Source: an uncultured cyanobacterium (GTDB lineage Bacteria; Cyanobacteriota; Cyanobacteriia; Cyanobacteriales; CAWUOF01). From it: a stretch of DNA of 64,000 bases. Within the stretch, counting starts at the first letter, position 1. Each line of letters begins with the position of its first letter. Below the pieces are notes generated by a model. It did not search any database and was not told the origin of the DNA. It saw nothing but the letters and a program-made list of their open reading frames with translations. A program made the translations under genes and the position numbers. Positions 4,953 through 33,524 of this stretch are shown here, one piece after another. Location: NCBI GenBank assembly GCA_963744145.1, contig CAVUSO010000001.1:4736001-4800000 (forward strand). Direction: 5' to 3'.

Positions 4953-4960
4953 CTGATAGC

Positions 4961-5040
4961 TCCCAACCCTTAAGAGGGAAGGGGGAGAAAGATAATTCTT
5001 GCTCCCCTTTCCTCCTAGGAGAGGGGTTGGGGGAGAGGTC
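4961..5040. repeat. Cyanobacterial C/G-tract palindromic repeat (CTCCCC..CCT..AGGAGAGGGG.TGGGGGAGAGGTC)
   Basis: A similar copy lies at 26039-26141. Both sit between convergent gene ends and could act as terminators. Confidence 0.7.
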
Positions 5041-15639: not shown

Positions 15640-16338
15640 ATGGATAAACAGCTATACGAACTTATTACAGAAGTGTGTCAACACCCCTTGAAAAACCTGA
15701 AAAGACGAAAGACGATCAATCTGTTGCTGATCGAAATTCAAAGATTACCAGGATTACTGAAATCGTCCCATCCAGACTACTTAGACGCTTTAAATCGGAC
15801 ACTAGAGTGGGTAAATCAAAAACTTTGTCAAGACTTCAATCCTGATCAACCCTTGGTGCAAAAGCGTTTCCAACAATGGGTCAACAGTTACTTGTACTGG
15901 CGAATTAGAGATTTATACTCATCAAAAAAAACCGCTCTTAGCTTAGATCCACCCATAGGAAACGATCGAAGCGAAACTTCTCTAGTATATCTGCTATCAA
16001 AAACAGGTTTTGAACCTTGTCCTACACTTACTGGAATTGATGGTTATATTGAAAAATTAGAAAGAGAGCAACAGCAGGTGCTTGGGCTAAAATTAGAACA
16101 ACATATTTTGGCAGATCCAAATGGAAAATTGCAAAATTGTCATCCTAAAAGTTATCCAAATTGTAACGCTCAATTACTCAGCACTAGAGTTCTATTAAAA
16201 GACCCACCAGATAAATTTAGCGCGATCGCACTTGAGCTTTCGATCAACTACCAAACTCTCAAATCACATTGGGAAAGAAAATGTCGTCCTCTGTTGCAAG
16301 AAATTTTACTAGAATTAGGATATAAATCTGAGGTTTAA
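15640..16338 (+). CDS. Divergent sigma-70-like factor (cyanobacterial, DUF1822-associated)
   Basis: Region-2-like WVNSYLYWRIRDLY, an SLDPPIG motif and a C-terminal HTH (FSAIALELSINYQTLKSHWERKC); stop overlaps the next start. Confidence 0.65.
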   Translation: MDKQLYELITEVCQHPLKNLKRRKTINLLLIEIQRLPGLLKSSHPDYLDALNRTLEWVNQKLCQDFNPDQPLVQKRFQQWVNSYLYWRIRDLYSSKKTALSLDPPIGNDRSETSLVYLLSKTGFEPCPTLTGIDGYIEKLEREQQQVLGLKLEQHILADPNGKLQNCHPKSYPNCNAQLLSTRVLLKDPPDKFSAIALELSINYQTLKSHWERKCRPLLQEILLELGYKSEV

Positions 16339-17132
16339 TGATGAACAGCACAGAAATACCACTGATCACAGTTCCGTTAGGTCGTGAATTTCATGCTAGA
16401 GCAAAGGAATTGACTACCAAAGCTATGCAACTAGCAAATCCAACCAATAAACATCAAATAGGAAAGCGAGTTTATCTGAATACCTTAGCAGTTTATGCTG
16501 TTGATAGTTATCTGAGATGGCAAGCATACCAAGCAGATTTTAGTCAAAGTAATAGCAGCGATCCTATTTTATGTTCCCGCTGGGATGTAGCAGATTTAAT
16601 GATTCCTGGTATTGGTAAATTAGAATGTCGTCCGATTGGGGAAGGGGAAACTGTTTTGACTCTACCATCGGAAGTGACAGAAGACCGGATTGGGTATTTC
16701 CTAGTACAATTGGGGGAACATTTAGACTCAGCAACTCTATTAGGATTTGTGCCAGCTTTTGCTCCTTCTAACTTACCAAAACAGATCGCGATCGCTAACC
16801 TCCAGTCTCTTGATGCTTTTCTAGAGTATCTTGATCGATTGGAATTAGCCAACAATTTTTTCCAAGGAGATGATCCAGTTGCAGTCCGAGTCCGGGAGGT
16901 GTTGGAAAATAATCCCTTTTCAGAAATAATTGCACAATTAGAACGCATTTGGCGAAGTGAAACTGATCCTGAAAAACCTTATGCTATAAAAGATATCCTT
17001 GCTGGTAGTACAGCGGGTTTAAAGACCGATCGCGAATCTATAACTATTGATGATGAACTTGAAATTGAATTACTAGAACTAGCGGAGAGTTTAATAGAAA
17101 AATTAGCAGAAATTTGGGATTATCCTACATAA
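16338..17132 (+). CDS. DUF1822 family protein
   Basis: KRVYLNTLAVYAV..YL, ADLMIPGIGKLECRP, PSEVTEDRIGY..VQL and A.LLGF motifs. Confidence 0.85.
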   Translation: MMNSTEIPLITVPLGREFHARAKELTTKAMQLANPTNKHQIGKRVYLNTLAVYAVDSYLRWQAYQADFSQSNSSDPILCSRWDVADLMIPGIGKLECRPIGEGETVLTLPSEVTEDRIGYFLVQLGEHLDSATLLGFVPAFAPSNLPKQIAIANLQSLDAFLEYLDRLELANNFFQGDDPVAVRVREVLENNPFSEIIAQLERIWRSETDPEKPYAIKDILAGSTAGLKTDRESITIDDELEIELLELAESLIEKLAEIWDYPT

Positions 17133-17181: not shown

Positions 17182-20100
17182 ATGGATAAACAACGCCGAC
17201 AATTTTATCACGATTTTCTAAATAAAGCCGCACAATTTATGCAAGAAAATGGGATTAATCAACAAGAAGTTTACCCTTTTCTAAATGAAAACTTAGATAA
17301 ACTAGATGATAATTTACCCAGCATCCTACAAGAATGGTCGGAATTAATGTTGTTAATGATTGGGCTAAATAAAGCCCATCAAATGGCTACATGGATGAAT
17401 GTTTTTGGCGAGTTGATTTTTAATTTTCCTGGGGGTAATAGAGCAAATAACATAGAAATAACTATTGCTGCTTATAATATTGCTTCCCCATTCGTTAATC
17501 GCTATCTAGAACCAGGAATTTGGAGTGTCGTTCAAATTAATTTGGGAATTGCTTATCACAAACGAATTAAAGGCGATCGCTCCTTTAATATAGAACAAGC
17601 TATCCAATGCTATCAAGCAGTTTTACAAATCTGTGTTCAGCAAAATTTAACCACTGAGTATGGATATGCTCAAATAAATTTAGGAAATGCTTACTTTGAT
17701 AGAATCCAGGGAAATTGGGCAGAAAATATCGAGCAATGTATACAAGCTTACGAAGCAGCTTTACCAATTTATACCTACTCCACATTTCCCAAAGAATGGG
17801 CAGCTATACAATGTAATTTAGGGGTAGTTTATAAAGATAGAAGTATAGGCGATCGCGCTCAAAATTTGGAGATGGCTATTAGATCTAGTGAAGCAGCATT
17901 GACAGTTCATACCCGAAGTGCATTTCCTTTAGATTGGGCAAAAAATTACAATAATTTAGGCAATTCTTATAGAGAACGAATTGTTGGGGAAAAAGCAGAT
18001 AATTTAGAAAGAGCGATCGCTGCATTCCAAGCCACATTGCCAATTTACACCCAACAGAATTTCCCAGAAAAATGGGCAGATACTCAAAATAATTTAGGTA
18101 CGGTCTATTCGCAACGGCTCAAAGGTGAAAGAGCCGAAAATTTAGAGCAGTCTATTTCTTATTATCAAGCAGCTTTGACAGTTTTAACAAAAGCAGAGTT
18201 TCCCCAAAAATGGGCAGCAATTCAAAATAATTTAGGAGTAGCCTACAGTAGCAGAATTAAGGGCGAGATTATTGCCAATATAGAAGCAGCGATTAGTTGC
18301 ATTCAAGCATCATTGGACGTTTATACCCGTGAGGGGTTTCCCGAAGAATGGGCGCAATGTCAAAACACTTTGGGGAGTGCTTACTTCGATCGAATTAAGG
18401 GCGATCGCGCTGAAAACATAGAGCAAGCAATTAAATATTACAAAGCAGCTTTACAAATTCGTACCCGCGAAACATTACCCAGGGATTGGGCGATGTCTCA
18501 AAATAATTTGGGAGCAGCTTATTTAGCTCGAATTAAAGGCGATCGCGCTGAAAATATAGAGGAGGCTATTCAATCCTCTAAAACAGCTATGCTTGTTTAC
18601 ACTTATGAAACAATGCCTGAAAATTGGGCAAATGTTCAACTCAATTTGGGTAATGCCTATAGTAATCGAATTAATGGAGAAAAAGCTGAAAATTTAGAAC
18701 AGGCAATTCGCTACTATGAAGCGGCATTATGTGTATATAATCGCTCTGCTTTTCCTCAAAAATGGGCTGAAATTAAAAATAATTTGGCTATTGTATATGT
18801 TGATCGAATTGAAGGCGATCGAGCTGAAAATTTAGAACAAGCACTTGCATGTTGTCAAGCAGCATTACAAGTTCAGACTCGCGATACTTTACCTCAATAT
18901 TGGGCAAATACGCAAATCAATATGGGTAATACCTACTCTGATCGGATTTGTGGTGAAACTTCGGAAAACATAAAAACTGCAATTATTTGCTTTCAAGCAG
19001 CTTTACAAGTCTACACTAAAGAATCCTTTCCCTACGATTGGGCATTAATTATGAACAATTTGGGAAATGCTTATAGAAAGTTGAATAAAATTGATGAAGC
19101 GATCGCCTATTTTCGTTTAGCTCTCGAAATTAATACACCAATTGCGAACCCGAGCGAATGTCTCACAGCCGGAAAAAACTTGGGTGATACTGCCTTTAAC
19201 GCTCAACGTTGGGCAGCAGCGATTGAAGGTTACGATCTGGCTATCAAAGCTATAGAAACTAGCCGTTCTTGGACAAGTACTGAAGCGAGGAGACAAGAGA
19301 TTTTAAAATCAGGCATTTTGGTTTATGCTAACTTAGTGCAAGCTTGCATTAACTGCGGACAGTTCGAGCAGGCGATTGAGTATGCAGAGCGATCGCGATG
19401 CCAACGTTTAGTAGATTTGATGGCAAGTAATAACTTATCATATAATAGAGAAAATGACTCACAGGTTTATAAATATTTGCAAGAATATGAAAGACTACAA
19501 AAGCAAATTGATGCTTACTATAAGAACAATAACCGAGATTTTGGTAAAGTTCAAAATTTAACTGAAAATCGAGCTGGATTACAACCAGATGATAAAATTA
19601 TTCAGAATTGGGAAACTCAAAAACAGCAAATTTGGGAACAACTTCGGCGTTTAGATCCTGTTCTAGCGGGTCAAATTCAAGTCAGTCCTATATCTTTAGA
19701 TGCAATTCAAAAATTAATTGACTATCCAACCGCAATTTTGAGTTTTTATACGACACCTGATGGAATTCATATTTTTATAGTACGACAGACTAAAATTACT
19801 TACCACAGATGTAATAATTTAGATGGTGAAACATTTTCAAATTTAGTTCATGACAAATGGTTAATCATTTATTTAACTAAAAAAGAGGAATGGAAAAATA
19901 GTTTAGTATCAGTATTAAAAGAACTAGCTGAACTTCTAAATATAGAAAACTTAATTAGTCAGCATTTAAGTGGTGTTGAAGAACTGATTATTATACCCCA
20001 CTGGTTTCTGCACTCTCTTCCATTTGCAGCGTTACCTATTGACAATGATCAATATTTGGGAGACAAGTTTTTAATCCGTTATATTCCCAGTTGCCAAATT

Positions 20101-20949
20101 TTGGAATTTTGTCAGAAACGTTCTCAAGTAGACCAAACCCTAACCTATGGTACGATTGAAGATGCTACTGAAGATTTACCCTGTTCGAGTTTTGAAGGTG
20201 TTCAAATTGCTCAACTGCATAATATTCCCCGTTATTTACGCTTAAGTGGTCGCACAGAAGCTACTGTCAATAATTATCGTCAGTTAGTTAAACAAGTGCA
20301 AGTGATTATTAGCAGTCACCATGCCCAATCTCGCTTTGATAATCCTCTAGAATCTAAATTGATTTTATCAGATGGTAGTATTACTTTAGGACAACTATTA
20401 ACACCTGAATGGCGATTTCCCCATTTGGTGGATGTATTTCTTTCCTGTTGTGAAACAGGTTTAGGTTTGACTTTATTAACAGACGATGTTTTTACCCTTG
20501 CTAGTGGATTTTTGTGTGCAGGTGCTAGAAATGTAGTTAGTACACTTTGGGCAGTTGATGATTTAGCAACGGCGTTATTTTCGATTTTTTATCATCAATA
20601 TCGACACAGAGGCTCCTGTCGTCCAGCAGCTTTGCAACAAGCCCAGGAAGAACTACGCACCTTAAGCGGGGAAACCCTCGCTACTATTTACCAACCTCAA
20701 ATAAATTTGCTATTGAATGAGAAATTTCAGCAACTAGATCGGGCACGTAAAGAAGCAAAAACTCATCGCGATCGCTACCCGAAAGATACCCCAGAATATA
20801 TGCAATGGGATGAAGAATACAAACAGAATTTTAACGCTAGCGATCGCATTCGTCAGACCAAAAAAAGACTTCAAACTATCAGTCAAGAAGCATTTCCCTT
20901 CTCTCACCCCTTTTACTGGGCTGCGTTTATCTGTTCAGGTTTGCGCTAA
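17182..20949 (+). CDS. TPR-repeat + CHAT protease
   Basis: About 13-14 TPR-like units; SSHHA and FLSCCETG catalytic motifs; HPFYWAAF. Confidence 0.93.
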   Translation: MDKQRRQFYHDFLNKAAQFMQENGINQQEVYPFLNENLDKLDDNLPSILQEWSELMLLMIGLNKAHQMATWMNVFGELIFNFPGGNRANNIEITIAAYNIASPFVNRYLEPGIWSVVQINLGIAYHKRIKGDRSFNIEQAIQCYQAVLQICVQQNLTTEYGYAQINLGNAYFDRIQGNWAENIEQCIQAYEAALPIYTYSTFPKEWAAIQCNLGVVYKDRSIGDRAQNLEMAIRSSEAALTVHTRSAFPLDWAKNYNNLGNSYRERIVGEKADNLERAIAAFQATLPIYTQQNFPEKWADTQNNLGTVYSQRLKGERAENLEQSISYYQAALTVLTKAEFPQKWAAIQNNLGVAYSSRIKGEIIANIEAAISCIQASLDVYTREGFPEEWAQCQNTLGSAYFDRIKGDRAENIEQAIKYYKAALQIRTRETLPRDWAMSQNNLGAAYLARIKGDRAENIEEAIQSSKTAMLVYTYETMPENWANVQLNLGNAYSNRINGEKAENLEQAIRYYEAALCVYNRSAFPQKWAEIKNNLAIVYVDRIEGDRAENLEQALACCQAALQVQTRDTLPQYWANTQINMGNTYSDRICGETSENIKTAIICFQAALQVYTKESFPYDWALIMNNLGNAYRKLNKIDEAIAYFRLALEINTPIANPSECLTAGKNLGDTAFNAQRWAAAIEGYDLAIKAIETSRSWTSTEARRQEILKSGILVYANLVQACINCGQFEQAIEYAERSRCQRLVDLMASNNLSYNRENDSQVYKYLQEYERLQKQIDAYYKNNNRDFGKVQNLTENRAGLQPDDKIIQNWETQKQQIWEQLRRLDPVLAGQIQVSPISLDAIQKLIDYPTAILSFYTTPDGIHIFIVRQTKITYHRCNNLDGETFSNLVHDKWLIIYLTKKEEWKNSLVSVLKELAELLNIENLISQHLSGVEELIIIPHWFLHSLPFAALPIDNDQYLGDKFLIRYIPSCQILEFCQKRSQVDQTLTYGTIEDATEDLPCSSFEGVQIAQLHNIPRYLRLSGRTEATVNNYRQLVKQVQVIISSHHAQSRFDNPLESKLILSDGSITLGQLLTPEWRFPHLVDVFLSCCETGLGLTLLTDDVFTLASGFLCAGARNVVSTLWAVDDLATALFSIFYHQYRHRGSCRPAALQQAQEELRTLSGETLATIYQPQINLLLNEKFQQLDRARKEAKTHRDRYPKDTPEYMQWDEEYKQNFNASDRIRQTKKRLQTISQEAFPFSHPFYWAAFICSGLR

Positions 20950-21385: not shown

Positions 21386-24300
21386 ATGGATGAGAAACGC
21401 CGACGAGCTTATCACAATTTTCTAGATCAAAGTATATATTATATCATTACTGAAAATGGTTCTAATCAACAAAAATTTTACCAATTTTTAGCAGACAACT
21501 TAGATCAGCTAGATGATAATTTACCCAACTTATTAGAAGAATACTCAAAAGCACTTTTGTCAATAGTTGCGTCTGACGAAACCATTGATATCGCCAATTG
21601 TATGGGAACTTTTGGCGATTTAATTGTTAATTTTAATTTAGGTAATAAAGCCAATAATATAGAAATTGGTATTGCTGCTTACAATATTGCTCTTCCACTT
21701 TTGAACTGCTATTTAGAAACAGAAAATTGGGTGATTATTAAACATAGGTTGGGAATTGCTTATTCCAACCGAATCAAAGGTGATCGTTCTTCCAATATAG
21801 AGCAGACTATTAAATGCTATCAAGCCGTTTCAGAAATATGTACCCAGACAAATTTAACGTCTTATTGGGCAACAAATCAGTTAAATTTAGGAAGTACTTA
21901 CTTTGCTAGAATTGAGGGAAATCGAGCGGAAAATATGGAGCAATCGCTCCAATGTTACCAGGCAGCTTTACAATTTTATACCTACTCAGCATTTCCCCAA
22001 CGCTGGGCAGATACGCAAAGTAACTTAGGGTTCGCTTACCAAAAAAGGATTAAGGGCGATTCCTCTCTAAATTTAGAGATGTCAATTAGCTGTAGCAAAG
22101 CAGCATTAGATGTCTATACTCAAAACGCATTTCCTTGGGATTGGGCTAGAACTCATGAGAATTTGGGTGATACTTACCAAAAACGACTTGTTGGTAAAAA
22201 ATCAGATAATTTAGAGCAAGCAATTTCTCATTATGAGGCAGCGTTGAGAGTTTTTACAAAAGAAGAGTTTCCCCAAAGATGGGCGATAATTCAAATTAGT
22301 TTAGCTATAGTCTACCTACAACCAATTAGGGGCGAGATAGTTGCCGATATAGAATCAGCTATCCGTTATAATCAAGCATCATTGGAAGTTCATAATCGCG
22401 AAATTTTTCCTGAATTCTGGGCACTTATCCAAAGTAATTTAGGGGTAGCTTATATAGATAGAATTAAGGGCGATCGCGCTCAGAATTTGGAGCTAGCGAT
22501 TAGTTATATTAACGCAGCATTGGAAGTTTATACAAGAAGTAGATTTCCTTTAAATTGGGCAAAAAGTCATCAGATATTAGGCGATATTTATCAAAAACGT
22601 GTTGTTGGTAAAAAATCAGAAAATTTAGAGACTACTATCGCTGCATTAGAATCTGCATTGCAAGTCTACAACAAGCAGGATTTTCCAGAAGAATGGGCGC
22701 GTACTCAAAATTATTTAGGTACTGCATATAACGAGCGGATCGAAGGTGAAATCGCCGAAAATGTAGAGAAGGCAATTTCTTATCATGAAGCAGCATTGAC
22801 AGTTTTTACAAAAGCAGAGTTCCCGCAGCAATGGGCAACGACTCAAGATCATTTAGGAACAGCCTATGGCAATCGAATTAGGGGCGATGTAGCTACCAAC
22901 TTAGAAACACAAATTAGTTATTATCAAGCATCATTACAAGTTGACGCTTATGAATCATTTCCCCGTCATTGGGCGTTGACTATGAACAATTTGAGTACGG
23001 CTTACCACCGCCGAATTAAAGGCGATCGCGCTGACAATATAGAGCAAGCAATTCAATATGTTAAAAAGTCTTTACAAATTTATACCCGCGAGATATTGCC
23101 CAAAGATTGGGCGAGGTCTCAACAGAATTTGGGGGTATATTACTTTGATCGAATTAAGGGCGATCGCACTGAAAATATAGAGCAGGCTATTCAATACTAT
23201 CAATCGGCTATGCTTGTTTACGCTTCTGAAGCAATACCTCAAGATTGGGGAAATATTCAATTCAATTTGGGTAGTGCCTATGGTGTGCGAATTGCTGGTC
23301 AAGAATCTGAAAACTTAGAACAGGCAATTCGTTACTATGAATCTGCGTTGCTCGTTCATACTCGCTCAGAGTTTCCCCAAAAATGGGCTGAAATTAAAAA
23401 TAACTTGGCTAGGGTATATTTCCAGCGAATTGAAGGTGATCGAGCTGAAAATTTGGAACAAGCTATTGAGTGTACCCAAGCTGCTTTGCAAGTTCAGACT
23501 CGCGATGCTTTTCCTCATGTTTGGGCAGATAAACAAAGCACTTTGGGACAAGCCTATTACTTGCGAATTTGCGGCGAAAAGTCTGAAAACATAAAAGCAG
23601 CGATCGCTTGCTATCAAGCAGCTTTACAAGTCTACACTAGAAAATCATTTCCCCGTGGTTGGATGTCTATTATGAACGGGTTGGGAATCGCTTACAGGAA
23701 GTTAGAAAAAATTGATGAAGCGATCGCCTATTTTCGTTTAGCTCTCGAAATTACTACCCCAATTGCGGACCCGATTGAATGTCTCAGATATGGAAGAAAT
23801 TTGGGTGAGACTGCGTTTAGCGATCAACGTTGGGCAGCAGCAATTGAAGGTTATGATCTGGCGATCAAAGCTATAGAAACTAGCCGTTCTTGGACAAACG
23901 TTGAAGCGAGGAGACAAGAGATTTTAAATTCAGGCTTTATGGTTTATGCTGACTTAGTGCAAGCTTGCATTAACTGCGAACAGTTCGATCAAGCAATTGA
24001 GTATGCAGAGCGATCGCGTTGCCAAAGTTTAGTAGATTTGATGGCCAGTAATGACTTATCATATAATAGCGAACTCGATCCACAAGTTTATAAATATTTG
24101 CAGGAATATGAGAACATACAGAGGCAAATTGATAACTACCATCAGACTAACAATTCTGGTAATAGCCGAGAGTTGAGTATTATTGAAACTTTGACTGGAA
24201 ATCGAGCTGGACTAAAACCAAATGATCAAACTATTAAGAATTGGGAAACTCAGAAACAACAAATTTGGGAACAACTTCGGCGTTTAGATCCCGTCCTAGC

Positions 24301-25582
24301 GGGTCAAATTCAAGTCACGCCTATACAGTTAGCTGCAATCCAACAATTAATTGACTATCCAACAGCAATTCTGGGTTTTTATACGACCATTAATGCAATT
24401 CATATCTTTATAGTACGACAGAAGAACATCACTTATCATAGTTGTAATAAGCTGGATGGTGAAACATTTTCAAAGTTGCTTCATGATAAATGGTTAACAC
24501 TTTATTTAACTAACAAAGAGGAATGGCAAAATAGTTTAATATCTGAATTAAAAGAACTAGCGGAACTTTTAGATTTAGAGAACTTAATTAATCAGCATCT
24601 AAGTGGTGTTGAAGAACTCATTATTATTCCCCACTTGTATCTGCATCTTCTTCCATTTGCAGCGTTACCAATTGAGAACAGTCAATATTTAGGAGACAAA
24701 TTTTTAATCCGCTACATTCCCAGTTGCCAAATTTTAGAATTTTGCCAGAAACGTTCTCAAGTAGACAAACCCCGAACCTATGGCACTATTGAAGATGCTA
24801 CTGAAGATTTACCCTGTTCGAGTTTTGAGGGTGTTCAAATTGCTCAACTGCATAATATTCCCCGTTATTTACGCTTAAATGGTCGCACGGAAGCTACTGT
24901 TAACAACTATCGTCAGTTACTTAAAGAAGTGCAAGTGATTATTAGCAGTCACCATGCCCAAGCCCGCTTTGATAATCCTCTGGAATCTAAGTTGATTTTA
25001 TCAGATGGTAGCATTACTTTAGGACAACTATTAACACCTGAATGGCGACTCCCCCATCTAGTAGATGTGTTTCTTTCCTGTTGCGAAACAGGTTTAGTTT
25101 TTACAGCAATAACAGACGATGTTTTTACCCTTGCTAGTGGATTTTTGTGTGCAGGTGCTAGAAGTGTAGTTAGTACACTTTGGGCAGTTGATGATTTAGC
25201 AACGGCGTTATTTTCGATTTTTTATCATCAATATCGACACAGAGGCTCCTGTCGTCCAGCAGCTTTGCAACAAGCGCAGGAAGAACTACGCACCTTAAGC
25301 GGGGAAACCCTCGCTACTATTTACCAACCTCAAATAAATTTGCTATTGAATGAAAAATTTCAGCAACTAGATCAGGCACGTAAAGAAGCAAAAACTCATC
25401 GCGATCGCTACTCCAAAGATACCCCAGAATATGTGCAATGGGATGAAGAATATAAACAGAATTTTAACGCTAGCGATCGCATCCGTCAGACCAAAAACGG
25501 ACTTCAGGTGATCAGTCAAGAAGCATTTCCCTTCTCTCACCCCTTCTACTGGGCAGCTTTTATCTGTTCTGGTTTGCGCTAA
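21386..25582 (+). CDS. TPR-repeat + CHAT protease (tandem paralog of 17182-20949)
   Basis: More TPR units than the upstream paralog; same SSHHA and FLSCCETG motifs; nearly identical C-terminus. Confidence 0.93.
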   Translation: MDEKRRRAYHNFLDQSIYYIITENGSNQQKFYQFLADNLDQLDDNLPNLLEEYSKALLSIVASDETIDIANCMGTFGDLIVNFNLGNKANNIEIGIAAYNIALPLLNCYLETENWVIIKHRLGIAYSNRIKGDRSSNIEQTIKCYQAVSEICTQTNLTSYWATNQLNLGSTYFARIEGNRAENMEQSLQCYQAALQFYTYSAFPQRWADTQSNLGFAYQKRIKGDSSLNLEMSISCSKAALDVYTQNAFPWDWARTHENLGDTYQKRLVGKKSDNLEQAISHYEAALRVFTKEEFPQRWAIIQISLAIVYLQPIRGEIVADIESAIRYNQASLEVHNREIFPEFWALIQSNLGVAYIDRIKGDRAQNLELAISYINAALEVYTRSRFPLNWAKSHQILGDIYQKRVVGKKSENLETTIAALESALQVYNKQDFPEEWARTQNYLGTAYNERIEGEIAENVEKAISYHEAALTVFTKAEFPQQWATTQDHLGTAYGNRIRGDVATNLETQISYYQASLQVDAYESFPRHWALTMNNLSTAYHRRIKGDRADNIEQAIQYVKKSLQIYTREILPKDWARSQQNLGVYYFDRIKGDRTENIEQAIQYYQSAMLVYASEAIPQDWGNIQFNLGSAYGVRIAGQESENLEQAIRYYESALLVHTRSEFPQKWAEIKNNLARVYFQRIEGDRAENLEQAIECTQAALQVQTRDAFPHVWADKQSTLGQAYYLRICGEKSENIKAAIACYQAALQVYTRKSFPRGWMSIMNGLGIAYRKLEKIDEAIAYFRLALEITTPIADPIECLRYGRNLGETAFSDQRWAAAIEGYDLAIKAIETSRSWTNVEARRQEILNSGFMVYADLVQACINCEQFDQAIEYAERSRCQSLVDLMASNDLSYNSELDPQVYKYLQEYENIQRQIDNYHQTNNSGNSRELSIIETLTGNRAGLKPNDQTIKNWETQKQQIWEQLRRLDPVLAGQIQVTPIQLAAIQQLIDYPTAILGFYTTINAIHIFIVRQKNITYHSCNKLDGETFSKLLHDKWLTLYLTNKEEWQNSLISELKELAELLDLENLINQHLSGVEELIIIPHLYLHLLPFAALPIENSQYLGDKFLIRYIPSCQILEFCQKRSQVDKPRTYGTIEDATEDLPCSSFEGVQIAQLHNIPRYLRLNGRTEATVNNYRQLLKEVQVIISSHHAQARFDNPLESKLILSDGSITLGQLLTPEWRLPHLVDVFLSCCETGLVFTAITDDVFTLASGFLCAGARSVVSTLWAVDDLATALFSIFYHQYRHRGSCRPAALQQAQEELRTLSGETLATIYQPQINLLLNEKFQQLDQARKEAKTHRDRYSKDTPEYVQWDEEYKQNFNASDRIRQTKNGLQVISQEAFPFSHPFYWAAFICSGLR

Positions 25583-25701
25583 CTCAAGGCATTTGTCCAG
25601 GTATGTTTGCGCTTGGGCGCTAGATTCGGAGGGCGCTGAAGCGCTACTAGGTGCCTTTTTTGGTGCCAGTCGGGTAAGTCTGATTTATTTTTCCAAAAAT
25701 T

Positions 25702-25734
25702 TGCATAATTCTGCGACTACACCCTGGTTAATAG
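25702..25734 (+). promoter_or_regulatory. Bipartite motif TGCATAATT-N12-CCTGGTTAATAG, copy 1
   Basis: Identical boxes and spacing at 28543 and 29040; ends 65 nt before ORF 25800. Confidence 0.7.
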
Positions 25735-25799
25735 AAGAACGCAGTTGGCCAACTTGCTTCTCCAAAAATTTCAGATTTACCTTAACGGAGAAATGAGCC

Positions 25800-26003
25800 A
25801 TGATATCTACAATTTTATCGTCTTTCCTCATGTTTGGCATAATTGTGCCTTCACATCAGGGAAGCAATATTACGCATGAGGAACAAATTTCAGCATCTGA
25901 TCAAGTCCTATCCCATCACCCGCAATTAGATATTTTTCAGCATGAAACAAAAAAAGATGGGAATGGAGATGACGATCCCATTGTTCCCCCTAATCGACGC
26001 TAA
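25800..26003 (+). CDS. Small putatively exported peptide (67 aa, C-terminus DDDPIVPPNRR)
   Basis: GGAG RBS at 25787-90, hydrophobic N-terminus ISTILSSFLMFGIIVP, and the conserved motif upstream. Confidence 0.6.
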   Translation: MISTILSSFLMFGIIVPSHQGSNITHEEQISASDQVLSHHPQLDIFQHETKKDGNGDDDPIVPPNRR

Positions 26004-26038
26004 TTCAGGGCTGTTTCAATCTCCCTTCTAACATAGCA

Positions 26039-26141
26039 GACCTAACCCCCCAGCCCCCTTCCCTGCAAGAGAAGGGGGAGCAATTAATATGATTAATTCT
26101 TGCTCCCCTCTCCTCCCAGGAGAGGCGTTGGGGGAGAGGTC
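26039..26141. repeat. C/G-tract palindromic repeat (same family as 4961-5040)
   Basis: ACCTAACCCCCCAGCCCCCTTCCC...GCTCCCCTCTCCT...AGGAGAGG.GTTGGGGGAGAGGT. Confidence 0.7.
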
Positions 26142-26147
26142 AAACAA

Positions 26148-28151
26148 TTAATTATTGATCGAACTCAAACGTTGACGTGCGTTAATTTTCCAAATATCTA
26201 ATTCTGGCAGTCTCCAATTTATTCCTTGAGTTTTATGATCGCTTTGGTTATATTTGAGAAAATTTTCATAATAAACTAATGCTTCTTGGATATTTCCTTG
26301 AGCCTCCTTCACTTGTGCCAAAAGATAATGTGTTGGTGAATAAACCTGATTTAACTCCAGGGATTTTAAAAGCTGTAACTCAGCTTCATTATAGCGATTT
26401 TCAAGAAAATAAGCCCACCCCAAATTTTTGGACAAAGCTGCTAAAACTAGATCATCTTTGACTTTTCCTAAAATCGGCAATATCAGATTAATTGATGTCT
26501 CTAGATTTCCAGAGATAATTTCCAACCGAGCTAAATTACTAATAGCAGCATAAGCCCCTCGATTATTAAATTTGGCAGCAATTTGATAGTGATTTATTGC
26601 CTTAGCTAAATCTTGCAACTGTTCATAAGTAGCTCCTAGGTTATAGTGAGCTGGAGCTAAGTCAGGATTAAATCTAATCGCTTGGCTTAAGTAATATTTA
26701 GCAGTTTGAAACTCTCCAGCTAAATAATTTTTATGACCAACTTGATTAAAATATTTAGCAAGCAATTGATGAGTTATGTATTGTTTTATTTCTGGATTTA
26801 GAGTAAAAATATCTTCTACTTCTGGAGAATCTTTTACTAAAAACTCTTCCCTAATCAGTGACTCTAAAGCAGGTTGCAAATCAGACATTTCTCCCGCAAC
26901 AGATAGATTTGATTTTAAATCATTGCAACTAACTGGTTTATTTTTTAAGGCTAAATAACAGAGGATGTAATTCTCTATATCTGATAAATCAGCACTGTTT
27001 TTTTGCAAAAAATCTCGCAGGATATTCTGGATAATTAAAGTAGCTTGCTGGATAAATTGGGTGAAATTTCCTGAAAATATGTGATCAAAGTTAGTGGTGA
27101 CTATTTTTAAAAGTAAAGGATTATTACCATAGAGTTGGAGTAACTCAGAAAATAGACTATTTTCCGGACTACTCGAGAACCTTTTGGCTGAATAGATAAT
27201 TTTTTCGACGCTTTGCTCATCTAAGCCATTTAATGGTAATACTTTAATCTTGGAGTTTTCTGTGGTGATAAAAATAAGTTCTGGGTGGAGATACCAACTG
27301 ATAAGTAATAAACAACTTTGATGGGGTGATGTTACTATTTGGTGAAATAGCTCTGCATAATTTTCGTATCCTTGTTGATAGCAATTACTACTTTGAAGAA
27401 TGCTATCAACTTGATCTAATATTACCAAACACCGTGCCGAACTTAGGTATTTGAGTAATAAACCGATTCTGGTTTCCGTATTCTCTAGTAAGTCGGTTTC
27501 TGGTTGGGGAGATAGGAATTTAAGTAAATCGTTTAAAATATCTGACATCAATGGGCGTTCTTTGAGCGATCGCCAAATGCAATAATCAAACTCACCTTGA
27601 ATTTCTTGTACTGTCCTTACAGCCAAGGTGGTTTTACCAATTCCTCCTATTCCTAATAGTGCTACCAATCGGTAAGCATCCTTAACTATATATTGTTTTA
27701 AAACGGTAAATTCAGGATTACGACCATAAAAAATAGGGACATCAGGTGCATCACCCCAATCTATCCGGGGGTTGATTTTCGCGATCGCTGTTTCTGGGTA
27801 ACTACCTTTACTAATAGATGGGGTAACATCCTCAATAGTAGACTGTACTGGATCAGGTTGAGCAGAAATCCCATCACTAGCTGTACCATTAGTAAAATTA
27901 GTAACCTGTCGTTGGTATTGAGAAAGGAGGATTTGCTGTAATTTAGCCAATTTTCCTGGTCCTCGTCCCCTAATCTCAAATTTCTTGTAAACCTCACCTA
28001 GTCTTTTCTGAAGCGCTTCTTTACTGATATCCAATTCTTTAGCGATCGAGTGCATGGGTTGACCTTTGAGGGCTCTGGAAAGAGCTTCAAATTCGCTGTC
28101 GGAAACACGAAAATTTCTAGCTAGATTTTTTAAAAAGTTTTGGGGAATCAT
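26148..28151 (-). CDS. HTH + NB-ARC (STAND) ATPase + TPR protein
   Basis: N-terminal LuxR-like HTH (SIAKELDISKEALQKRLGEVYKKF), DWGDAPDVPIFYGR, Walker A GIGGIGKTT, WRSL, Walker B LVILDQ, a GNNPLLL GxP-like motif and C-terminal TPRs (HYNLGATYE, KNLGWAY). Confidence 0.88.
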   Translation of the reverse strand: MIPQNFLKNLARNFRVSDSEFEALSRALKGQPMHSIAKELDISKEALQKRLGEVYKKFEIRGRGPGKLAKLQQILLSQYQRQVTNFTNGTASDGISAQPDPVQSTIEDVTPSISKGSYPETAIAKINPRIDWGDAPDVPIFYGRNPEFTVLKQYIVKDAYRLVALLGIGGIGKTTLAVRTVQEIQGEFDYCIWRSLKERPLMSDILNDLLKFLSPQPETDLLENTETRIGLLLKYLSSARCLVILDQVDSILQSSNCYQQGYENYAELFHQIVTSPHQSCLLLISWYLHPELIFITTENSKIKVLPLNGLDEQSVEKIIYSAKRFSSSPENSLFSELLQLYGNNPLLLKIVTTNFDHIFSGNFTQFIQQATLIIQNILRDFLQKNSADLSDIENYILCYLALKNKPVSCNDLKSNLSVAGEMSDLQPALESLIREEFLVKDSPEVEDIFTLNPEIKQYITHQLLAKYFNQVGHKNYLAGEFQTAKYYLSQAIRFNPDLAPAHYNLGATYEQLQDLAKAINHYQIAAKFNNRGAYAAISNLARLEIISGNLETSINLILPILGKVKDDLVLAALSKNLGWAYFLENRYNEAELQLLKSLELNQVYSPTHYLLAQVKEAQGNIQEALVYYENFLKYNQSDHKTQGINWRLPELDIWKINARQRLSSINN

Positions 28152-28441
28152 TGTAATAAGCTACTACATAAGTAATATAAACAGCTATTTTACCTAAAAT
28201 TTCTCGCGATCGAGGAGTACGCTCTTCTCCCAGAGAAATTCCTCAGTTATTTTCAATTGTAATGGTTTTTTCTCATTTTAATCAGTATGACAGAAGTATT
28301 TATCTTGATTAACCATAGATTTTTTGCTAGAGTAAAACTCTTGTCCATAAATAAATACCACCATATTCGAGCCGAAGGAGATAAATAACCAATCCCTTTG
28401 GGTGATTAACTCATTTTTAATGAGATTTTTTTCTCAGATAG

Positions 28442-28470
28442 TTGACATTTGCGGAAAAAGCAGTTAGGCT
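28442..28470 (+). promoter_or_regulatory. Sigma70-type promoter TTGACA-N17-TAGGCT
   Basis: Consensus -35, 17-nt spacer and a plausible -10 in the divergent intergenic region. Confidence 0.55.
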
Positions 28471-28542
28471 TATCTCAGTTAGAGCAGAAGCAGTGGTCGG
28501 ACTAGTGTCCTCTAGCAGACCAGAAACTTTCTTGTGTGTGTC

Positions 28543-28575
28543 TGCATAATTTTTTGGCGTTGCCCTGGTTAATAG
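28543..28575 (+). promoter_or_regulatory. Bipartite motif TGCATAATT-N12-CCTGGTTAATAG, copy 2
   Basis: Upstream of ORF 28671. Confidence 0.7.
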
Positions 28576-28670
28576 TTGGAAGTTTAGATTAAGGAAGATG
28601 TACAGAAATATGCTGTTCCTAAACAGGAAGTTAGAAAAATGCGATCGCGAGGTTCACACAGGAGTAAACT

Positions 28671-29021
28671 TTGATTAAGTTTGTTGGACAAGTCGAATTA
28701 CGCAACCGTCGTTGCGTTTATTATCAGGATAATTCTTACAGAGTAGAGCAAGTCAATCCAAATAGAGAACAAGTAACTTACTCTTATGATATTCCTGACA
28801 CAGCGGTTGAGTATCTATACAATGAATTAAAAGGTTGTAAAGTTACAAAAACAGATGCTGCTAGGGTTCTTCAACGAGTTGCGATCAGCTTGGAACTTCC
28901 ATTTACTCACGGCTGGAAACTTGACTATTACGCTCAGGAAGCATTAATAGTTCTGGTAGCATTAGGTAAAGCACGTTTAAGTCAAGAATACCGAAGTTAC
29001 TTTTACACCATTGTCTCCTGA
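28671..29021 (+). CDS. Hypothetical protein (116 aa)
   Basis: AGGAG RBS before a TTG start; no family recognised. Confidence 0.65.
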   Translation: MIKFVGQVELRNRRCVYYQDNSYRVEQVNPNREQVTYSYDIPDTAVEYLYNELKGCKVTKTDAARVLQRVAISLELPFTHGWKLDYYAQEALIVLVALGKARLSQEYRSYFYTIVS

Positions 29022-29039
29022 TTTGGTTTTCCAAAAACT

Positions 29040-29072
29040 TGCATAATTTTTTGACCTGATCCTGGTTAATAG
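29040..29072 (+). promoter_or_regulatory. Bipartite motif TGCATAATT-N12-CCTGGTTAATAG, copy 3
   Basis: Upstream of the HTH-GTPase gene. Confidence 0.7.
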
Positions 29073-29131
29073 TTAGAAGTTCGGAGTTGAAAATTTAAAA
29101 CTCAGACATCCCGTCAGTCAACACATAAATA

Positions 29132-31318
29132 TTGAGGTATAAAATGTTTAATATCCCAGCTACTTTTGGTGCAGTTATAACAGAGCTTAGAGAATACAGA
29201 GGTTTAAGTAAATCCCAATTGGCAGAAAAATTTAATATTGATGAGGATATAATTGACCAGATTGAGTCTGGAGAATTACCAAGTATTTCCGACGCTGAAG
29301 ATATTTTAAATAAAATAGGGGTTGAAGATTTAAACAGTCTTGAAAAATTTACCAATCAAAATTATGAAATTTTACCAAGACCACCTTTTTATCATCCTGA
29401 TCGAGATGCTCTATACTTAGCAGAATTAACTCTTCGCAAAATTAGAGATTTTCGTCATCAGCAAAAAGAACCACCTAGACTACTTGACCAACGAGCAGAA
29501 ATGCTTGAAAAGAGGCTTAAAGAAACACTTTCCGATCATCTTTATCCATTGAACTATTCTATCGCCTATATTGGACAAATTGGTGTTGGAAAAACTACTG
29601 CTATCTGCCAACAATACGGCTTAATATCTGAGGAAACAGATAAATTTTTATTAGAAACTGGAGGAGGAGGTACGACTATTTGTGAAGTTAGAATTAAGCA
29701 AGGAAATCAATATTCTATTTATGTGGAATCTATAGAACAGAAAGAAATATATGAACTATCAAAAAGTCTTTGTGCAAGTTTTAGTCAAAATTTACCACAA
29801 AACCAGTCTCAAGGTGTTTCTAAAGAAATAGAAAGAGCTTTACGTAATATGGCTAAAGTTATAAAACCCAAACCTCCAAAATCTCCAAAATCTCCAAAAT
29901 CTTCAAAATCAACTTCTCAGCAACTACATAACAATAATAATATAACTCAAAAACCAATAGAAGATCCATTAAAACAGCTTGCAGAAAGCTCAGGAAATTT
30001 TGAGAAATTATGTGGAGAATTTATAGAAAAATTATCTCTATGGAAAAGAACTCAAACAGAAATATTTTATGATGAATCAGATAAAATATCAGGTTGGAAA
30101 TGGTTACAAACGAACTTTAAAAATATTAACAATGGACGAGATGAACGTTTTTCATTACCTAAATTAATAACTATCACTGTACCAAACGATGCACTGAATA
30201 TATCCACTATTTACAAATTTGAGATAATTGACACTAAAGGAATTGATCAAACTGTTATTCGTCCCGATCTTCAAAATTGTATTAACGATAGTAAAACGCT
30301 TATAATTCTATGTTCGCCTTTTAATACTGCCCCTTGTCCATTAGCAGTTCAAAAAATTATTAGTGAGTTGAATGAAACTGGACGCTCAAATGCTTTGAAA
30401 GAAAGAGTTAATATTTTGGTATTGCCAAGAACAGGTGAAGCGATCAATATGAGAAGTGATGATGGTGAGCAGACGGAGGATGATGATGATGGTTACAGAA
30501 TGAAATCTGAACAGATAGAACTGGCACTTAGACGTATTAATACAAATCATATACCTCCTATACATTTTTTTAATTATAGTTCAGACGACCCCGATGATTT
30601 TAATGAATTCATTATTGATAATTTATTAAAATTTCGACAAAAAAAGATTGATATTATTAATGAAACGGATAGTGATATAGATAGTTTAATACAAAATCAA
30701 GAAGAAGAGTATTATAGAGCATCTTGGGAACAGGTAACAAGAAGAATAGAAAATTTCATAGAACGACATTCTGAATTACCTCATGATAATTGGAGAATCG
30801 AACAAGATTTACTTTCTGCAATTGTAGAAACTCACCCTAGAACACTATGGGCATCAATGCGACGCAGAGGTGAAGAATACTTATACGTTTATGACCTGCT
30901 TAATAATAGTGCAAGAAAAGAAGCTGTTAAATGCACTAACAATATATTAAATCGTTTAGATGAGCTAGTGCAGGATATGCTTGGAGATAACGAATTGCAA
31001 CCAGTACATCAATTCCTTAGAGGTTTAAATGTTTTTATTGATCTTGGTCGTAATAATTTTTTAAACGCAGTTGAAATAATCACATCTCAAGTTTTTCGTG
31101 ATGAGCTGTATAATGATGATTGTATTTGGGATGAATGTTGTGGGCTATGGGGACAAGGAAGAGGATTTCGAGATAGAATTAAAGAAAAATTTTATTATTG
31201 GTTTACAAATTATGATCATATATATCTTTATGATAATTTAAAGTCTGCTATCAATAACAGTTGGAAAAACAAATTTTTAAATGAGCTTCAGAAAAAAGTA
31301 GAACTTTTCCAAGAGTAA
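29132..31318 (+). CDS. XRE-HTH fused to a dynamin-like/TRAFAC GTPase (start probably ATG 29144)
   Basis: LREYRGLSKSQLAE...IDQIESG (XRE HTH), G1 GQIGVGKTT, G2-like GGGGTT, G3 DTKG and a long helical C-terminus. Confidence 0.75.
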   Translation: MRYKMFNIPATFGAVITELREYRGLSKSQLAEKFNIDEDIIDQIESGELPSISDAEDILNKIGVEDLNSLEKFTNQNYEILPRPPFYHPDRDALYLAELTLRKIRDFRHQQKEPPRLLDQRAEMLEKRLKETLSDHLYPLNYSIAYIGQIGVGKTTAICQQYGLISEETDKFLLETGGGGTTICEVRIKQGNQYSIYVESIEQKEIYELSKSLCASFSQNLPQNQSQGVSKEIERALRNMAKVIKPKPPKSPKSPKSSKSTSQQLHNNNNITQKPIEDPLKQLAESSGNFEKLCGEFIEKLSLWKRTQTEIFYDESDKISGWKWLQTNFKNINNGRDERFSLPKLITITVPNDALNISTIYKFEIIDTKGIDQTVIRPDLQNCINDSKTLIILCSPFNTAPCPLAVQKIISELNETGRSNALKERVNILVLPRTGEAINMRSDDGEQTEDDDDGYRMKSEQIELALRRINTNHIPPIHFFNYSSDDPDDFNEFIIDNLLKFRQKKIDIINETDSDIDSLIQNQEEEYYRASWEQVTRRIENFIERHSELPHDNWRIEQDLLSAIVETHPRTLWASMRRRGEEYLYVYDLLNNSARKEAVKCTNNILNRLDELVQDMLGDNELQPVHQFLRGLNVFIDLGRNNFLNAVEIITSQVFRDELYNDDCIWDECCGLWGQGRGFRDRIKEKFYYWFTNYDHIYLYDNLKSAINNSWKNKFLNELQKKVELFQE

Positions 31319-31519: not shown

Positions 31520-31807
31520 TTGACACTCCCACCTCTAAAGGGGATGGAATTCTTAAGAGATTTCGCTCTTAGTATCCCTATTGCTATGCTCATGTATGAT
31601 TTTCATGCCGCTCTCGGTCAATACATTGTATACCGAAATCTCATTCAACTTACCGCGACCGAATATATGTTATATTTGGCAATTGATGATGTCGTATACA
31701 AAGAGTTCTTTCAACGTAAGGCTGTACAAGTAGTTACTCATCAGAATCAGCTTCTTTTAATAGTAGTTGAAATGGAAAAAGAGGAAATTAGGCAATGGAT
31801 AAATTAG
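31520..31807 (+). pseudogene. xisH: XisH C-terminal fragment, preceded by a possible IS200/IS605-type end hairpin
   Basis: DFHAALGQYIVYR...LYLAI motif. The N-terminus is replaced by CACTCCCACCTCTAAAGGGGATGGAATTC. Confidence 0.65.
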
Positions 31808-31992
31808 AATACTATCGCAGCTACATTACTATGTATCTTCGCATTAAAAATGGCAAAATTTGGGTTGAAGAAGATTGGACGGATTTGGGTGTAGTTGACG
31901 ATTTATTAGCAGCAGAAATTCCTCAGAGTGATATAGTTTTAGAATTTCATCATCCCAGTAAACGACCTTTCACAGAATTTGCTACAGCTTGA
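31795..31992 (+). pseudogene. xisI: XisI, internally deleted
   Basis: MDKL..YR is joined directly to YLRIKNGKIWVEEDWT...DIVLEFH; about 50 aa shorter than the copy at 33512. Confidence 0.75.
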
Positions 31993-32097
31993 TGAGAAAC
32001 AAATATTTATCAGCCTATCCAATAAAAAACAATGTTGCAAGAGATCTAGTAAATAGCTAAGGTGATCGCTCTTTGAGGGAGTTAGGGTGCGATCGCT

Positions 32098-32502
32098 TTA
32101 TAACTCTACCCAATTCTCTAAATTTAAACCCTCTATTCTCGCTAAATCACTATCATTAGAAACCAAAATTAAATCTTTAACCATCGCTGTAGCAGCAATT
32201 AAAATATCTTCGATTTGTATTGGTAAACCTCTTAATCTCAGATTAGCATGAATTTCGGCGGCTTTTTCTAATATTGCCAAATCATCTAAGAGAATAATAG
32301 GATATCTTTGACAAAAATCTTCAAATCTTGCCCGTTGTTTAGGAGCCTCAATAGCTAAAAATCCTCTCCTAATTTCAAAGTAAGTTATACAGCTAATGAA
32401 AATATTTTCTTCTTTAGCATCAACAGCTAAAATTTTTTGCAAAATTTGAAGATTTTGCTTAATTGCCAAAGACACAATATTAGGATCTAATAAATAATTC
32501 AT
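32098..32502 (-). CDS. vapC: VapC/PIN-domain toxin
   Basis: YLLDPN, ITYFEI, EDILIAATA and LVSNDSD motifs. Confidence 0.88.
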   Translation of the reverse strand: MNYLLDPNIVSLAIKQNLQILQKILAVDAKEENIFISCITYFEIRRGFLAIEAPKQRARFEDFCQRYPIILLDDLAILEKAAEIHANLRLRGLPIQIEDILIAATAMVKDLILVSNDSDLARIEGLNLENWVEL

Positions 32503-32508
32503 AATTAT

Positions 32509-32868
32509 TTATTTCCGTTTAATTGCATCTTCAAAAATAGCCATTTGCTCAGGGGTAAAATCTTCACCTATTTTAGCCAAAAGTTGTACCGCCATCATTT
32601 TATCACAACGATTTTTTAAGCTTTCCTCTGATATCCTATTAAATTCTTCAAAAGATAAGGATTTTTCAAACACTTCAGCTAAGTGTGCCACCAGTTCTGA
32701 ATAATTCAGATCCTCTTTAAATAAAGGATCTTCCTCCATCAAAAGAGAAACGATCTTTTCAATTCTTTTAACCATTGATTCTTCTCTAATATCTGTTGAT
32801 AACATAATGAGTACCTCGCTAAACTTCATGACTATTGTATCAGTTTTTTGAATTTTCGGCAATGTCAT
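32509..32868 (-). CDS. Putative cognate antitoxin (hypothetical; true start probably later)
   Basis: Immediately upstream of the PIN gene; acidic, with a C-terminal FTPEQMAIFEDAIKR. Confidence 0.55.
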   Translation of the reverse strand: MTLPKIQKTDTIVMKFSEVLIMLSTDIREESMVKRIEKIVSLLMEEDPLFKEDLNYSELVAHLAEVFEKSLSFEEFNRISEESLKNRCDKMMAVQLLAKIGEDFTPEQMAIFEDAIKRK

Positions 32869-33107
32869 ACGATCGCTAATCTATACTAACATAGACATCT
32901 CCAAATATCCTGGCGCTTCCAATTATCACTAATTACCATTATTGGTGAATTTTTAGGGGTGTTTGAGGTGCGATCGCTGGTTTTGAGGATTTTGGACGGG
33001 TGATTTCTGTGGATAAAATGCCTAAGCTTGAGGATGTTCTGGTTTAGTGGTATAATTATTGGGATGGATCTTGATATGGACTCACCTTAATCTAAACAAG
33101 GAGGAAA

Positions 33108-33524
33108 ATGCCAGCAAAAGATACTTACTATGAGGGATTTAAAAATGCCCTAATTAAAGACTGTTAGGAGATCGTTCGTGATCCCTATACCATTAGATAT
33201 GCAGGGCTAAAGTTGTTTGCTGATTTAGCAGGGAAAAAGTTATTTTCTGCACAAAAAGAAGACACTAATATTATAGTTGAGGTTAAAAGTTTTCTTAACA
33301 TTTCTCCAATCCATGAGTTTCAATGTGCTTTAGGACAGTATATTTTATATCGTACCTTATTAGCTGAAATTCATCCTAATTATCAGTTATACTTAGCAAT
33401 TGAGCAAGAGGTTTATGAAACCTTTTTTCAGCAAAAAGGCATCAAACTTGTTAGAGAACAATATCAAATTTTATTGATTGTAATTAACATTACTACTGAG
33501 GAGATTTTCAAATGGACAAATTAA
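33108..33524 (+). pseudogene. xisH: XisH with a premature TAG
   Basis: AGGAGG RBS, then MPAKD...KNALIKDC*EIVRDPY; TAG at 33165-67 where Trp is usual. IVEVKSF and ALGQY motifs follow. Confidence 0.85.

Follow-up and report, generated by a model that had tools for sequence, protein, structure and literature searches.

A conserved bipartite motif in a cyanobacterial sigma-like/DUF1822/CHAT island is a probable promoter that may be read by the island's own divergent sigma factor

The genome of a filamentous cyanobacterium (7.7 Mb, 39% G+C) carries a bipartite motif, made up of box 1 (TGCATAATT), a 12-nt spacer and box 2 (CCTGGTTAATAG), 33 bp in all, which lies upstream of genes in and far beyond an island that encodes a divergent sigma-like factor, here called sigL, a DUF1822 protein and two TPR-CHAT (caspase-like) proteins. 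The window, that is, the whole stretch of 64,000 nucleotides that was analysed, is G000:C1:4736001-4800000 (genomes, contigs and loci carry the prefixes G, C and L). The motif is real and conserved. From its sequence and surroundings it is very probably a promoter, and the reading that we prefer, in which it is a -35/-10 promoter read by sigL, has in our estimate a probability of roughly 0.6. That reading was first put forward in a sequence-only reading of the window and is supported here by the predicted fold of sigL, by two unlike boxes and their spacing, by the clade to which the motif-linked sigL genes belong, by the boundary of a conserved leader, and by a related island (L069) that has no STAND gene.

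Three exact copies had been claimed in the window, and we found all three on the + strand with 0 mismatches. Together with the leader that follows the first of them they are as follows (types A and B are described below).

25702..25734, + strand: motif copy 1, type A; exact match; related islands carry these boxes at the equivalent position; proposed to serve the peptide gene as a -35/-10 promoter
28543..28575, + strand: motif copy 2, type B; exact match, facing away from the STAND gene; candidate promoter for the 116-aa gene
29040..29072, + strand: motif copy 3, chimeric; exact match, with a 5' flank of type A (TTTTCCAAAAACT) and a 3' flank of type B (TTAGAAGTT...)
25739..25799, + strand: conserved leader, from 4 nt after box 2; ACGCAGTTGGCCAACTTGCTTCTCC ... 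GGAGAAATGAGCC

The three spacers (CTGCGACTACAC, TTTTGGCGTTGC and TTTTGACCTGAT) and the shared flanks, TTTTCCAAAAA 5' of copies 1 and 3 and TT.GAAGTT 3' of copies 2 and 3, are also as the sequence-only reading described them. Its figure of about 60-95 nt between motif and gene agrees with the distances from motif end to start codon, which are 65 nt for copy 1 (ATG 25800, peptide gene), 95 nt for copy 2 (TTG 28671, 116-aa gene) and 59 or 71 nt for copy 3 (TTG 29132 or ATG 29144, helix-turn-helix (HTH)-nucleoside triphosphatase (NTPase) gene). No further match at up to 3 mismatches is present within the 64-kb window, and none arose in 100 dinucleotide shuffles of it (0/100). Copy 3 with its leader (29040-29143) was compared with L057/L058, where a DndB-like gene of Microcoleus has a homologous leader; the homology extends as far as the ATG, and the open reading frames (ORFs) behind the two leaders are unrelated.

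The whole genome was scanned with a weight matrix built from related motif instances, using a threshold of 20 bits and the reversed sequence as a control. Five sites reached the threshold (37.7 bits for three of them, 33.3 and 26.2), the next-best score was 15.4 bits, which leaves a clear gap below the five, and the reversed 7.7-Mb genome gave 0 hits of at least 20 bits. Rather than being scattered regardless of gene starts, the sites are intergenic and 5' of + strand ORFs in 5/5 cases. The two copies additional to those in the window, at G000:C1:3595370 (1 mismatch) and G000:C1:2303005 (3 mismatches), lie 127 nt before an ORF for a hydrophobic peptide of 77 aa and 382 nt before a sacsin-domain (sacsin-like ATPase) ORF, respectively. 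Because both sit in a common 320-nt repeat (87.5% identical; C1:3595126-3595436 and 2302760-2303077), they are not independent of each other. The regulon that the motif was proposed to define would reach beyond the island, to these two further sites. The upstream part of the repeat has two more partial copies near 2.30 Mb (2312311 and 2295515), and box 2 with the downstream part recurs without box 1 at 4657163-4657238 (- strand).

A pattern search that allowed up to 3 mismatches matched the motif in 69 of the 401 sampled genomes of the order, and the reversed pattern used as a control also hit about 16, so that most of the 3-mismatch matches are due to chance. Matches with 0-2 mismatches and island context occur in 8/401 genomes, which belong to three families (G000, G036, G253, G342, G375, G032, G326 and G085). 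An exact scan of public genomes found 38 loci, 33 of them from Microcoleus, Phormidium, Floridaenema and other oscillatorian records; the other 5, from unrelated, non-cyanobacterial phyla, were set aside as chance. A metagenome scan returned 37 rows, and of the 36 loci examined 7 encode island proteins, 2 more have typical flanks and 27, with neither an island protein match nor island-type flanks, were set aside as chance. G165/L042 and its relatives were likewise set aside as chance matches, and a match with 2 mismatches in G253:C1097 was discarded as it lies inside a coding ORF.

The 38 distinct motif instances (29 distinct over -20 to +45) fall into two classes. Type A copies lie about 120 nt past the last CHAT gene and are followed by the leader and a peptide gene. 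Type B copies are found beyond the STAND gene, which points the other way; here the flank TTGGAAGTT, which in some type B loci is the 5' arm of a hairpin, is followed by varied genes. In a canonical island sigL is followed by DUF1822 and TPR-CHAT, then by motif A with its leader and peptide gene, by the reversed HTH-STAND, and by motif B with cargo, the cargo across islands including the 116-aa family, an AAA_15/AAA_21 ATPase, a TerB-GTPase, dynamin-like GTPases and a DndB-like protein. In every instance the ORF behind the motif is on the same strand, and its start codon follows box 2 after 28-127 nt except at one site, where 382 nt separate them; start codons of type A peptides in related loci were assigned by eye. 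The unit of putative promoter and leader is reused before swapped cargo.

The spacer varies between copies and between orthologues, and the boxes are constant. The spacing between the boxes is 12 nt in 40/40 distinct instances, and other spacings from 3 to 30 nt are absent save for one tandem box 1 duplication, found in the type B copy of L035 (G253:C852, locus 6337-6378: TGCATAATTTGCATAATT). Most related loci were retrieved by a pattern with fixed boxes and spacing and so were selected for the boxes; the fair test is therefore offered by the sites found through the leader alone. At these motif sites box 1 is identical in 9/9 and box 2 reads CC[TC]GGTTA[AG]T, with G as its first base in one (G375), and the spacing of loci found by leader or by context agrees with 12 nt. 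A variant of box 2, CCCGGTTAGT, is present in G226 and G028, and a search for sigL residues that covary with this variant in the two genomes gave just four uninformative columns that differ.

The leader behind type A copies has the consensus GCGCAGTTGGCCAACTCGCTTCTCC ... GGAGAAACGAGC-ATG, beginning 4 nt past box 2, in which GCGCAGTTGGCCAACTNGCTTCTCC is followed by a complementary arm that contains the Shine-Dalgarno (SD) sequence and in which the palindrome AGTTGGCCAAC(T) is invariant. In the window the palindrome is AGTTGG/CCAACT at 25743-25754, and the anti-SD/SD pairing is that of UUCUCC with GGAGAA. The leader pattern occurs in 20/401 genomes of the order, with 0 control hits, and precedes small peptide genes, mostly with a hydrophobic N-terminus, beside STAND NTPases, with or without a sigma/CHAT island. 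The source genome has a further leader at G000:C1:2028221 (-). The motif precedes the leader at 9 of the 22 leader sites and other upstream sequences do so at 13, and since the same leader follows other sequences in 13/22 sites, the boxes are upstream DNA and not conserved RNA. Leaders without the motif, with a peptide and a STAND-like NTPase, are found in G268, G066, G137, G189 and G014, often with GAAATGTG-AAAA upstream; homologues of sigL, DUF1822 or CHAT were found within 10 kb at 0/9 of the motif-less leader loci examined, and the STANDs beside such leaders are without the HTH domain of the window STAND.

The leader may represent an RNA element or else an operator. In the minimum-energy fold of the window copy-1 leader UUCUCC pairs with GGAGAA with a z-score of only -0.23, and the three window leaders fold no better than shuffles (z -0.23, +0.44 and -0.07). 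The hairpin of the L069 leader alone stands out (z -3.5), RNAalifold gave merely a 3-pair stem, and no matching Rfam family was found for the leaders.

The leader also bears on a reading in which the motif is a promoter for a general sigma factor, such as the housekeeping one, with CATAAT in box 1 as the -10 element, the transcription start in the 12-nt spacer, and box 2 as a downstream operator or 5' leader element for an island regulator. CATAAT agrees with TATAAT in 5/6 positions and has TG before it, many cyanobacterial promoters have no -35 element, and a variable spacer would fit a start region. However, a sigma-70 consensus scan of 25560-29200 called 11 sites (shuffle mean 11.4) and 0/3 of the motif copies, and all 9 nt of box 1 are invariant, whereas a TAnnnT -10 element needs far less. 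The leader and the type B hairpin begin just past box 2 and not within the spacer. Box 2 itself is absent before the same leader in genomes without this sigL clade and is therefore not part of the conserved transcript. We consider a general-sigma promoter unlikely. A dedicated promoter would be needed here: no copy registers as a sigma-70 promoter, and a terminator-like hairpin lies between the second CHAT gene and copy 1.

The gene proposed to encode the reader of the motif had been called sigma-like in the sequence-only reading. Its position and the structural matches of its two domains (with their scores) are as follows.

15640..16338, + strand: sigma-like factor sigL (P0001), 232 aa, divergent; proposed motif reader
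sigL residues 1-99: sigma domain 2; SigW 7.9 (2.7 Å over 84 aa), CnrH 7.0, ShbA 6.8, SigC 6.5
sigL residues 134-232: sigma domain 4; SigR region 4 6.4 (2.1 Å over 64 aa), SigL domain 4 6.2
sigL residues 134-232: also sigma-E region 4 on -35 DNA, 5.5

Sequence comparisons place this protein far from described families. No Pfam family, including the sigma-70 region 2 and region 4 models, matched at E <=0.01, the best NCBIfam match has an E-value of 0.13, a sigL profile had no matches among PDB sequences, and the 68 homologues are all unnamed or 'hypothetical'. Alignment by hhalign with four extracytoplasmic function (ECF) sigma factors of the same genome covered the region 4.2 HTH only (probability 18%, E 1.3e-3). 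The AlphaFold2 (AF2) model of sigL (predicted local distance difference test score, pLDDT, 81.6) has two helical domains and a low-confidence linker, and in a Foldseek search with it the top rows were nearly all sigma factors, with weak E-values of 0.07 to 1. The domain matches listed above come from an all-against-all structural search with the same model, in which ECF domain 2 is followed by domain 4 in the correct order, with a linker between them and no domain 3, and the earlier label is thereby borne out at the level of the predicted fold. A passage of PMC8195603 terms the gene family an ECF sigma factor next to DUF1822. The source genome holds 7 sigL homologues.

In a tree of 40 sequences, which are the best-scoring hits and do not sample all 135 genomes with homologues, the sigL genes physically linked to the motif (9) or to its variant (2) group together with no other sequence among them, and the clade of these 11 genes has 99/99 support. 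L143 (G342:C20), tried as a motif-linked sigL, was ruled out as a paralogue on a contig other than that of the motif; the assembly of G342 lacks the cognate sigL, as contig C9 begins within CHAT.

In its geometry the motif has the build of an ECF promoter, with two unlike conserved boxes at a fixed spacing (box 1 starts 21 bp before box 2; the elements of ECF promoters lie about 22-23 bp apart), and with sites that lie 5' of genes, in sense orientation and at the distance of a 5' untranslated region (UTR). In none of the copies are the two boxes related by dyad, inverted or direct symmetry. Unlike boxes, fixed spacing, sense orientation at 5' UTR distance and a small gene set are likewise features of sigma-H (ECF group 4) promoters, and a sigL gene beside a partner gene recalls ECF group 4 systems. 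For sigma-H of Corynebacterium glutamicum, a passage of PMC10012870 gives GGAAT-N18-19-GTT, and the corresponding form in the motif is CATAA-N18-GTT (or ATAAT-N17-GTT), so that a GTT core stands 17-18 nt past an A/T-rich pentamer ending in AA(T) in both, as far as that passage goes. If GTT is the -10 core, transcription would start 1-4 nt past box 2, and the first bases of the conserved leader (type A) and of the hairpin arm (type B) fall within this same interval.

The HTH-STAND NTPase encoded between copies 1 and 2 gives rise to a different reading, also raised in the sequence-only reading, in which the motif is the binding site of this or another island HTH protein and tunes flanking promoters. 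Large STAND regulators activate or repress transcription, the STAND gene of canonical islands lies between copy A and copy B, and the protein has an N-terminal HTH in an HTH/NB-ARC/TPR build that resembles AfsR-type regulators (weak NCBIfam match, 1.1e-5). The island L069, however, which fills a whole 10-kb contig of G401 in the order sigL, DUF1822, CHAT, motif, 75-aa hydrophobic peptide, motif and DndB-like gene, has two copies right after CHAT and no STAND on the contig, and no homologue of the STAND HTH was found in the G401 bin, which is possibly incomplete; four other island genomes have 2-3 matches each to this domain. In the source genome, distances of 1.2 and 2.5 Mb separate two of the copies from the STAND gene. 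A homo-oligomeric HTH protein would lead one to expect direct or inverted repeats, which the boxes are not, and peptide/STAND-like modules without sigL are without the motif, their STANDs also lacking this HTH. The operator reading is weakened by these observations, and we regard it as improbable. The 75-aa peptide beside CHAT in L069 and the 77-aa peptide that follows the copy at C1:3595370 share 60% identity, and by this resemblance the distant site belongs to the same gene set.

Several observations weigh against sigL as the reader of the motif. The usual ECF cores (AAC at -35; CGT or GTC at -10) are absent and GTT alone is shared; compared with sigma-H promoters, the motif is without GGAAC/AAC or CGT. 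Box 2 is conserved over 10-12 nt, which is long for a -10 element and again unlike sigma-H promoters, and the CATAAT within box 1 is a good -10 hexamer itself. No motif copy lies 5' of the sigL operon in the window or in related loci, which is a further difference from sigma-H, as is a sigL too divergent for the Pfam sigma models. Many ECF sigma factors autoregulate; typical ECF cores and autoregulation are common and not obligatory. The island is passed on as a unit, so that sigL, DUF1822 and CHAT all co-occur with the motif and cannot be told apart on that basis. G401, the genome with the STAND-less contig, is a metagenome bin of uncertain completeness, in which the STAND HTH domain had 0 matches at E <=0.01 and just NTPase-domain paralogues were found. 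Lastly, the CHAT-linked sister clades of sigL gave no motif of their own in our searches, so that one private promoter per sigL clade is conjectural: the weight-matrix scan of 16 loci hit L121 alone, shared 8-mers over four CHAT-linked loci were noise, and looking for words similar to box 1 beside a different box 2 gave nothing consistent.

A further alternative of the sequence-only reading, that the copies are recombination sites by which gene cassettes are exchanged, found little support. The cargo behind type B copies does differ between genomes, with homology that ends about 10 nt past box 2 or at the start codon, the 116-aa gene is flanked by two motif copies, of which copy 3 is chimeric for type A and type B flanks, and a putative tyrosine recombinase ORF (read by eye) lies downstream in L069. 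The boxes, however, contain no inverted repeat and are not attC-like, no integrase family was detected among the 17 island ORFs scanned (13.4 to 38.3 kb), and every copy is 5' of a gene, in sense orientation and at 5' UTR distance. Homologous recombination between promoter copies explains both the chimera and the cargo swaps, and we hold dedicated recombination sites to be highly improbable.

The other features of the island in the window are as follows.

16338..17132, + strand: DUF1822 protein; Pfam DUF1822 1.3e-32; start overlaps the sigL stop by 1 nt
17182..20949, + strand: TPR-CHAT (caspase-like) protein 1, 1255 aa; Pfam CHAT 1.9e-36 and TPR families
21386..25582, + strand: TPR-CHAT protein 2, 1398 aa; Pfam CHAT 3.1e-35 and TPR families
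25641..25664, + strand: terminator-like hairpin and T-run, by consensus match only; between the stop of TPR-CHAT protein 2 and copy 1
25800..26003, + strand: 67-aa peptide gene; ORF with a hydrophobic N-terminus and an acidic tail; homologues at the equivalent position in related loci
26148..28151, - strand: HTH-STAND NTPase, 667 aa; N-terminal HTH, NB-ARC/NACHT and TPR; between copies 1 and 2
28671..29021, + strand: 116-aa gene; ORF, conserved island cargo, no Pfam hit
29144..31318, + strand: HTH(XRE)-NTPase-like gene; 724 aa if counted from the ATG, 728 aa from TTG 29132, where the ORF opens

The DUF1822 gene adjoins sigL in every related locus compared, and the order sigL-DUF1822-CHAT is common to L044, L069, L103, L121 and L195. 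The 67-aa peptide has no Pfam or NCBIfam match. Pfam matches of the HTH-STAND are NB-ARC (1.5e-11), TPR families and a weak GerE (0.0056), and its orthologues (39-71% identity) sit between both motif copies in related loci; homologues of the 116-aa gene (46-82% identity) lie 3' of type B copies. The gene behind copy 3 had been labelled an HTH-GTPase, of which the HTH part holds (Pfam HTH_31 1.3e-5 and HTH_3) and the GTPase part is not firm (weak FlhF P-loop, 8e-4).

A paralogous sigma-like/DUF1822/CHAT-type set straddles the start of the window (G000:C1:4734541-4735994 and window 138-4952); its sigma-like protein is 49% identical to sigL, and the set is without a motif copy. Long G/C-rich inverted-repeat elements (..cccttccc..gggggagaggt), similar to each other, follow the peptide gene (window 26038-26142) and the first CHAT-type gene (4960-5040), and in Rfam they gave only spurious miRNA models far below gathering scores. 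The 180 nt directly 5' of sigL duplicate part of the ORF at 13431-14483 (13812-13993 versus 15426-15602; 90% and 82% identity), and this ORF also carries a tandem array of 12/24-nt units (14173-14321). On the flanks of the island, within window 14577-15368, 31520-33856 and 35164-35916, there are two XisH/XisI pairs, of which the first is short, two DUF4058 genes, and a PIN-domain gene preceded by a 119-aa ORF.

The adjacent sigma-like, DUF1822 and CHAT/caspase genes are the trio described by Kaur et al. (2021), and the trio as such is already published. As in that predicted conflict system, in which protease activation leads to a transcriptional response, a sigma-like factor is combined here with DUF1822 and CHAT/caspase; in the system of Kaur et al. 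EACC2 is N-terminal to the caspase. In the island long TPR arrays precede the CHAT domain, which is C-terminal. What goes beyond the published system is the motif, together with the peptide/HTH-STAND module and the cargo set. In the main text of the 2021 eLife paper the words "promoter" and "regulon" have 0 occurrences each, and a literature search (for the motif, within the best 10 of 52 papers listed) found neither the motif and its target gene set nor, in print, a target, promoter or experiment for the sigma/DUF1822/CHAT trio. A partial parallel is DdvS/DdvA of Myxococcus xanthus, an ECF sigma and anti-sigma pair that controls a CRISPR-Cas system and is presented in a passage of PMC6061681 that also mentions the CHAT domain. 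Going by that passage, the two are alike in that an ECF-type sigma/anti-sigma pair switches on defence genes, and differ in that sigma family and partner are others, DdvA is membrane-bound and Myxococcus is not a cyanobacterium.

On the reading that we prefer, domain 4 of sigL would contact box 1 (TGCATAATT) as the -35 element and domain 2 would contact box 2 (CCTGGTTAAT), with its GTT core, as the -10 element, and the predicted transcription start would lie 1-4 nt past box 2. DUF1822, which would be made together with sigL, probably keeps it inactive in the manner of an anti-sigma factor. The TPR-CHAT caspase-like proteases may sense a stimulus and release sigL, presumably by proteolysis, and free sigL would then guide RNA polymerase to the motif promoters and switch on a small gene set. 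Here this set would comprise the 67-aa peptide, the 116-aa protein, the HTH-NTPase, the 77-aa hydrophobic peptide and the sacsin-like ATPase, and in relatives it would include DndB-like, AAA_15 ATPase, TerB-GTPase and dynamin-like genes. An extension of this scheme, which we think quite unlikely, is a two-stage alarm in which the CHAT sensor frees sigL, effectors and an exported peptide are switched on, the STAND serves as receptor of the peptide, in the way of RRNPP or arbitrium receptors, and a cell under stress or infection would arm itself as well as warn its neighbours in the filament; the peptide gene that such an alarm would use is always beside a TPR-bearing HTH-STAND.

Since the candidate targets are small peptides and DndB-like, AAA_15 ATPase, GTPase and sacsin-like genes, they point to a function in defence or cell death. 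The sigma/DUF1822/CHAT trio is widespread in cyanobacteria (sigma-like homologues in 135/401 genomes of the order) and poorly understood, and the prediction of 2021 is that its pathway ends in a transcriptional response. A promoter of 33 bp that recurs at no more than five sites across 7.7 Mb would give that pathway a readable output, by which an untested conflict system becomes testable.

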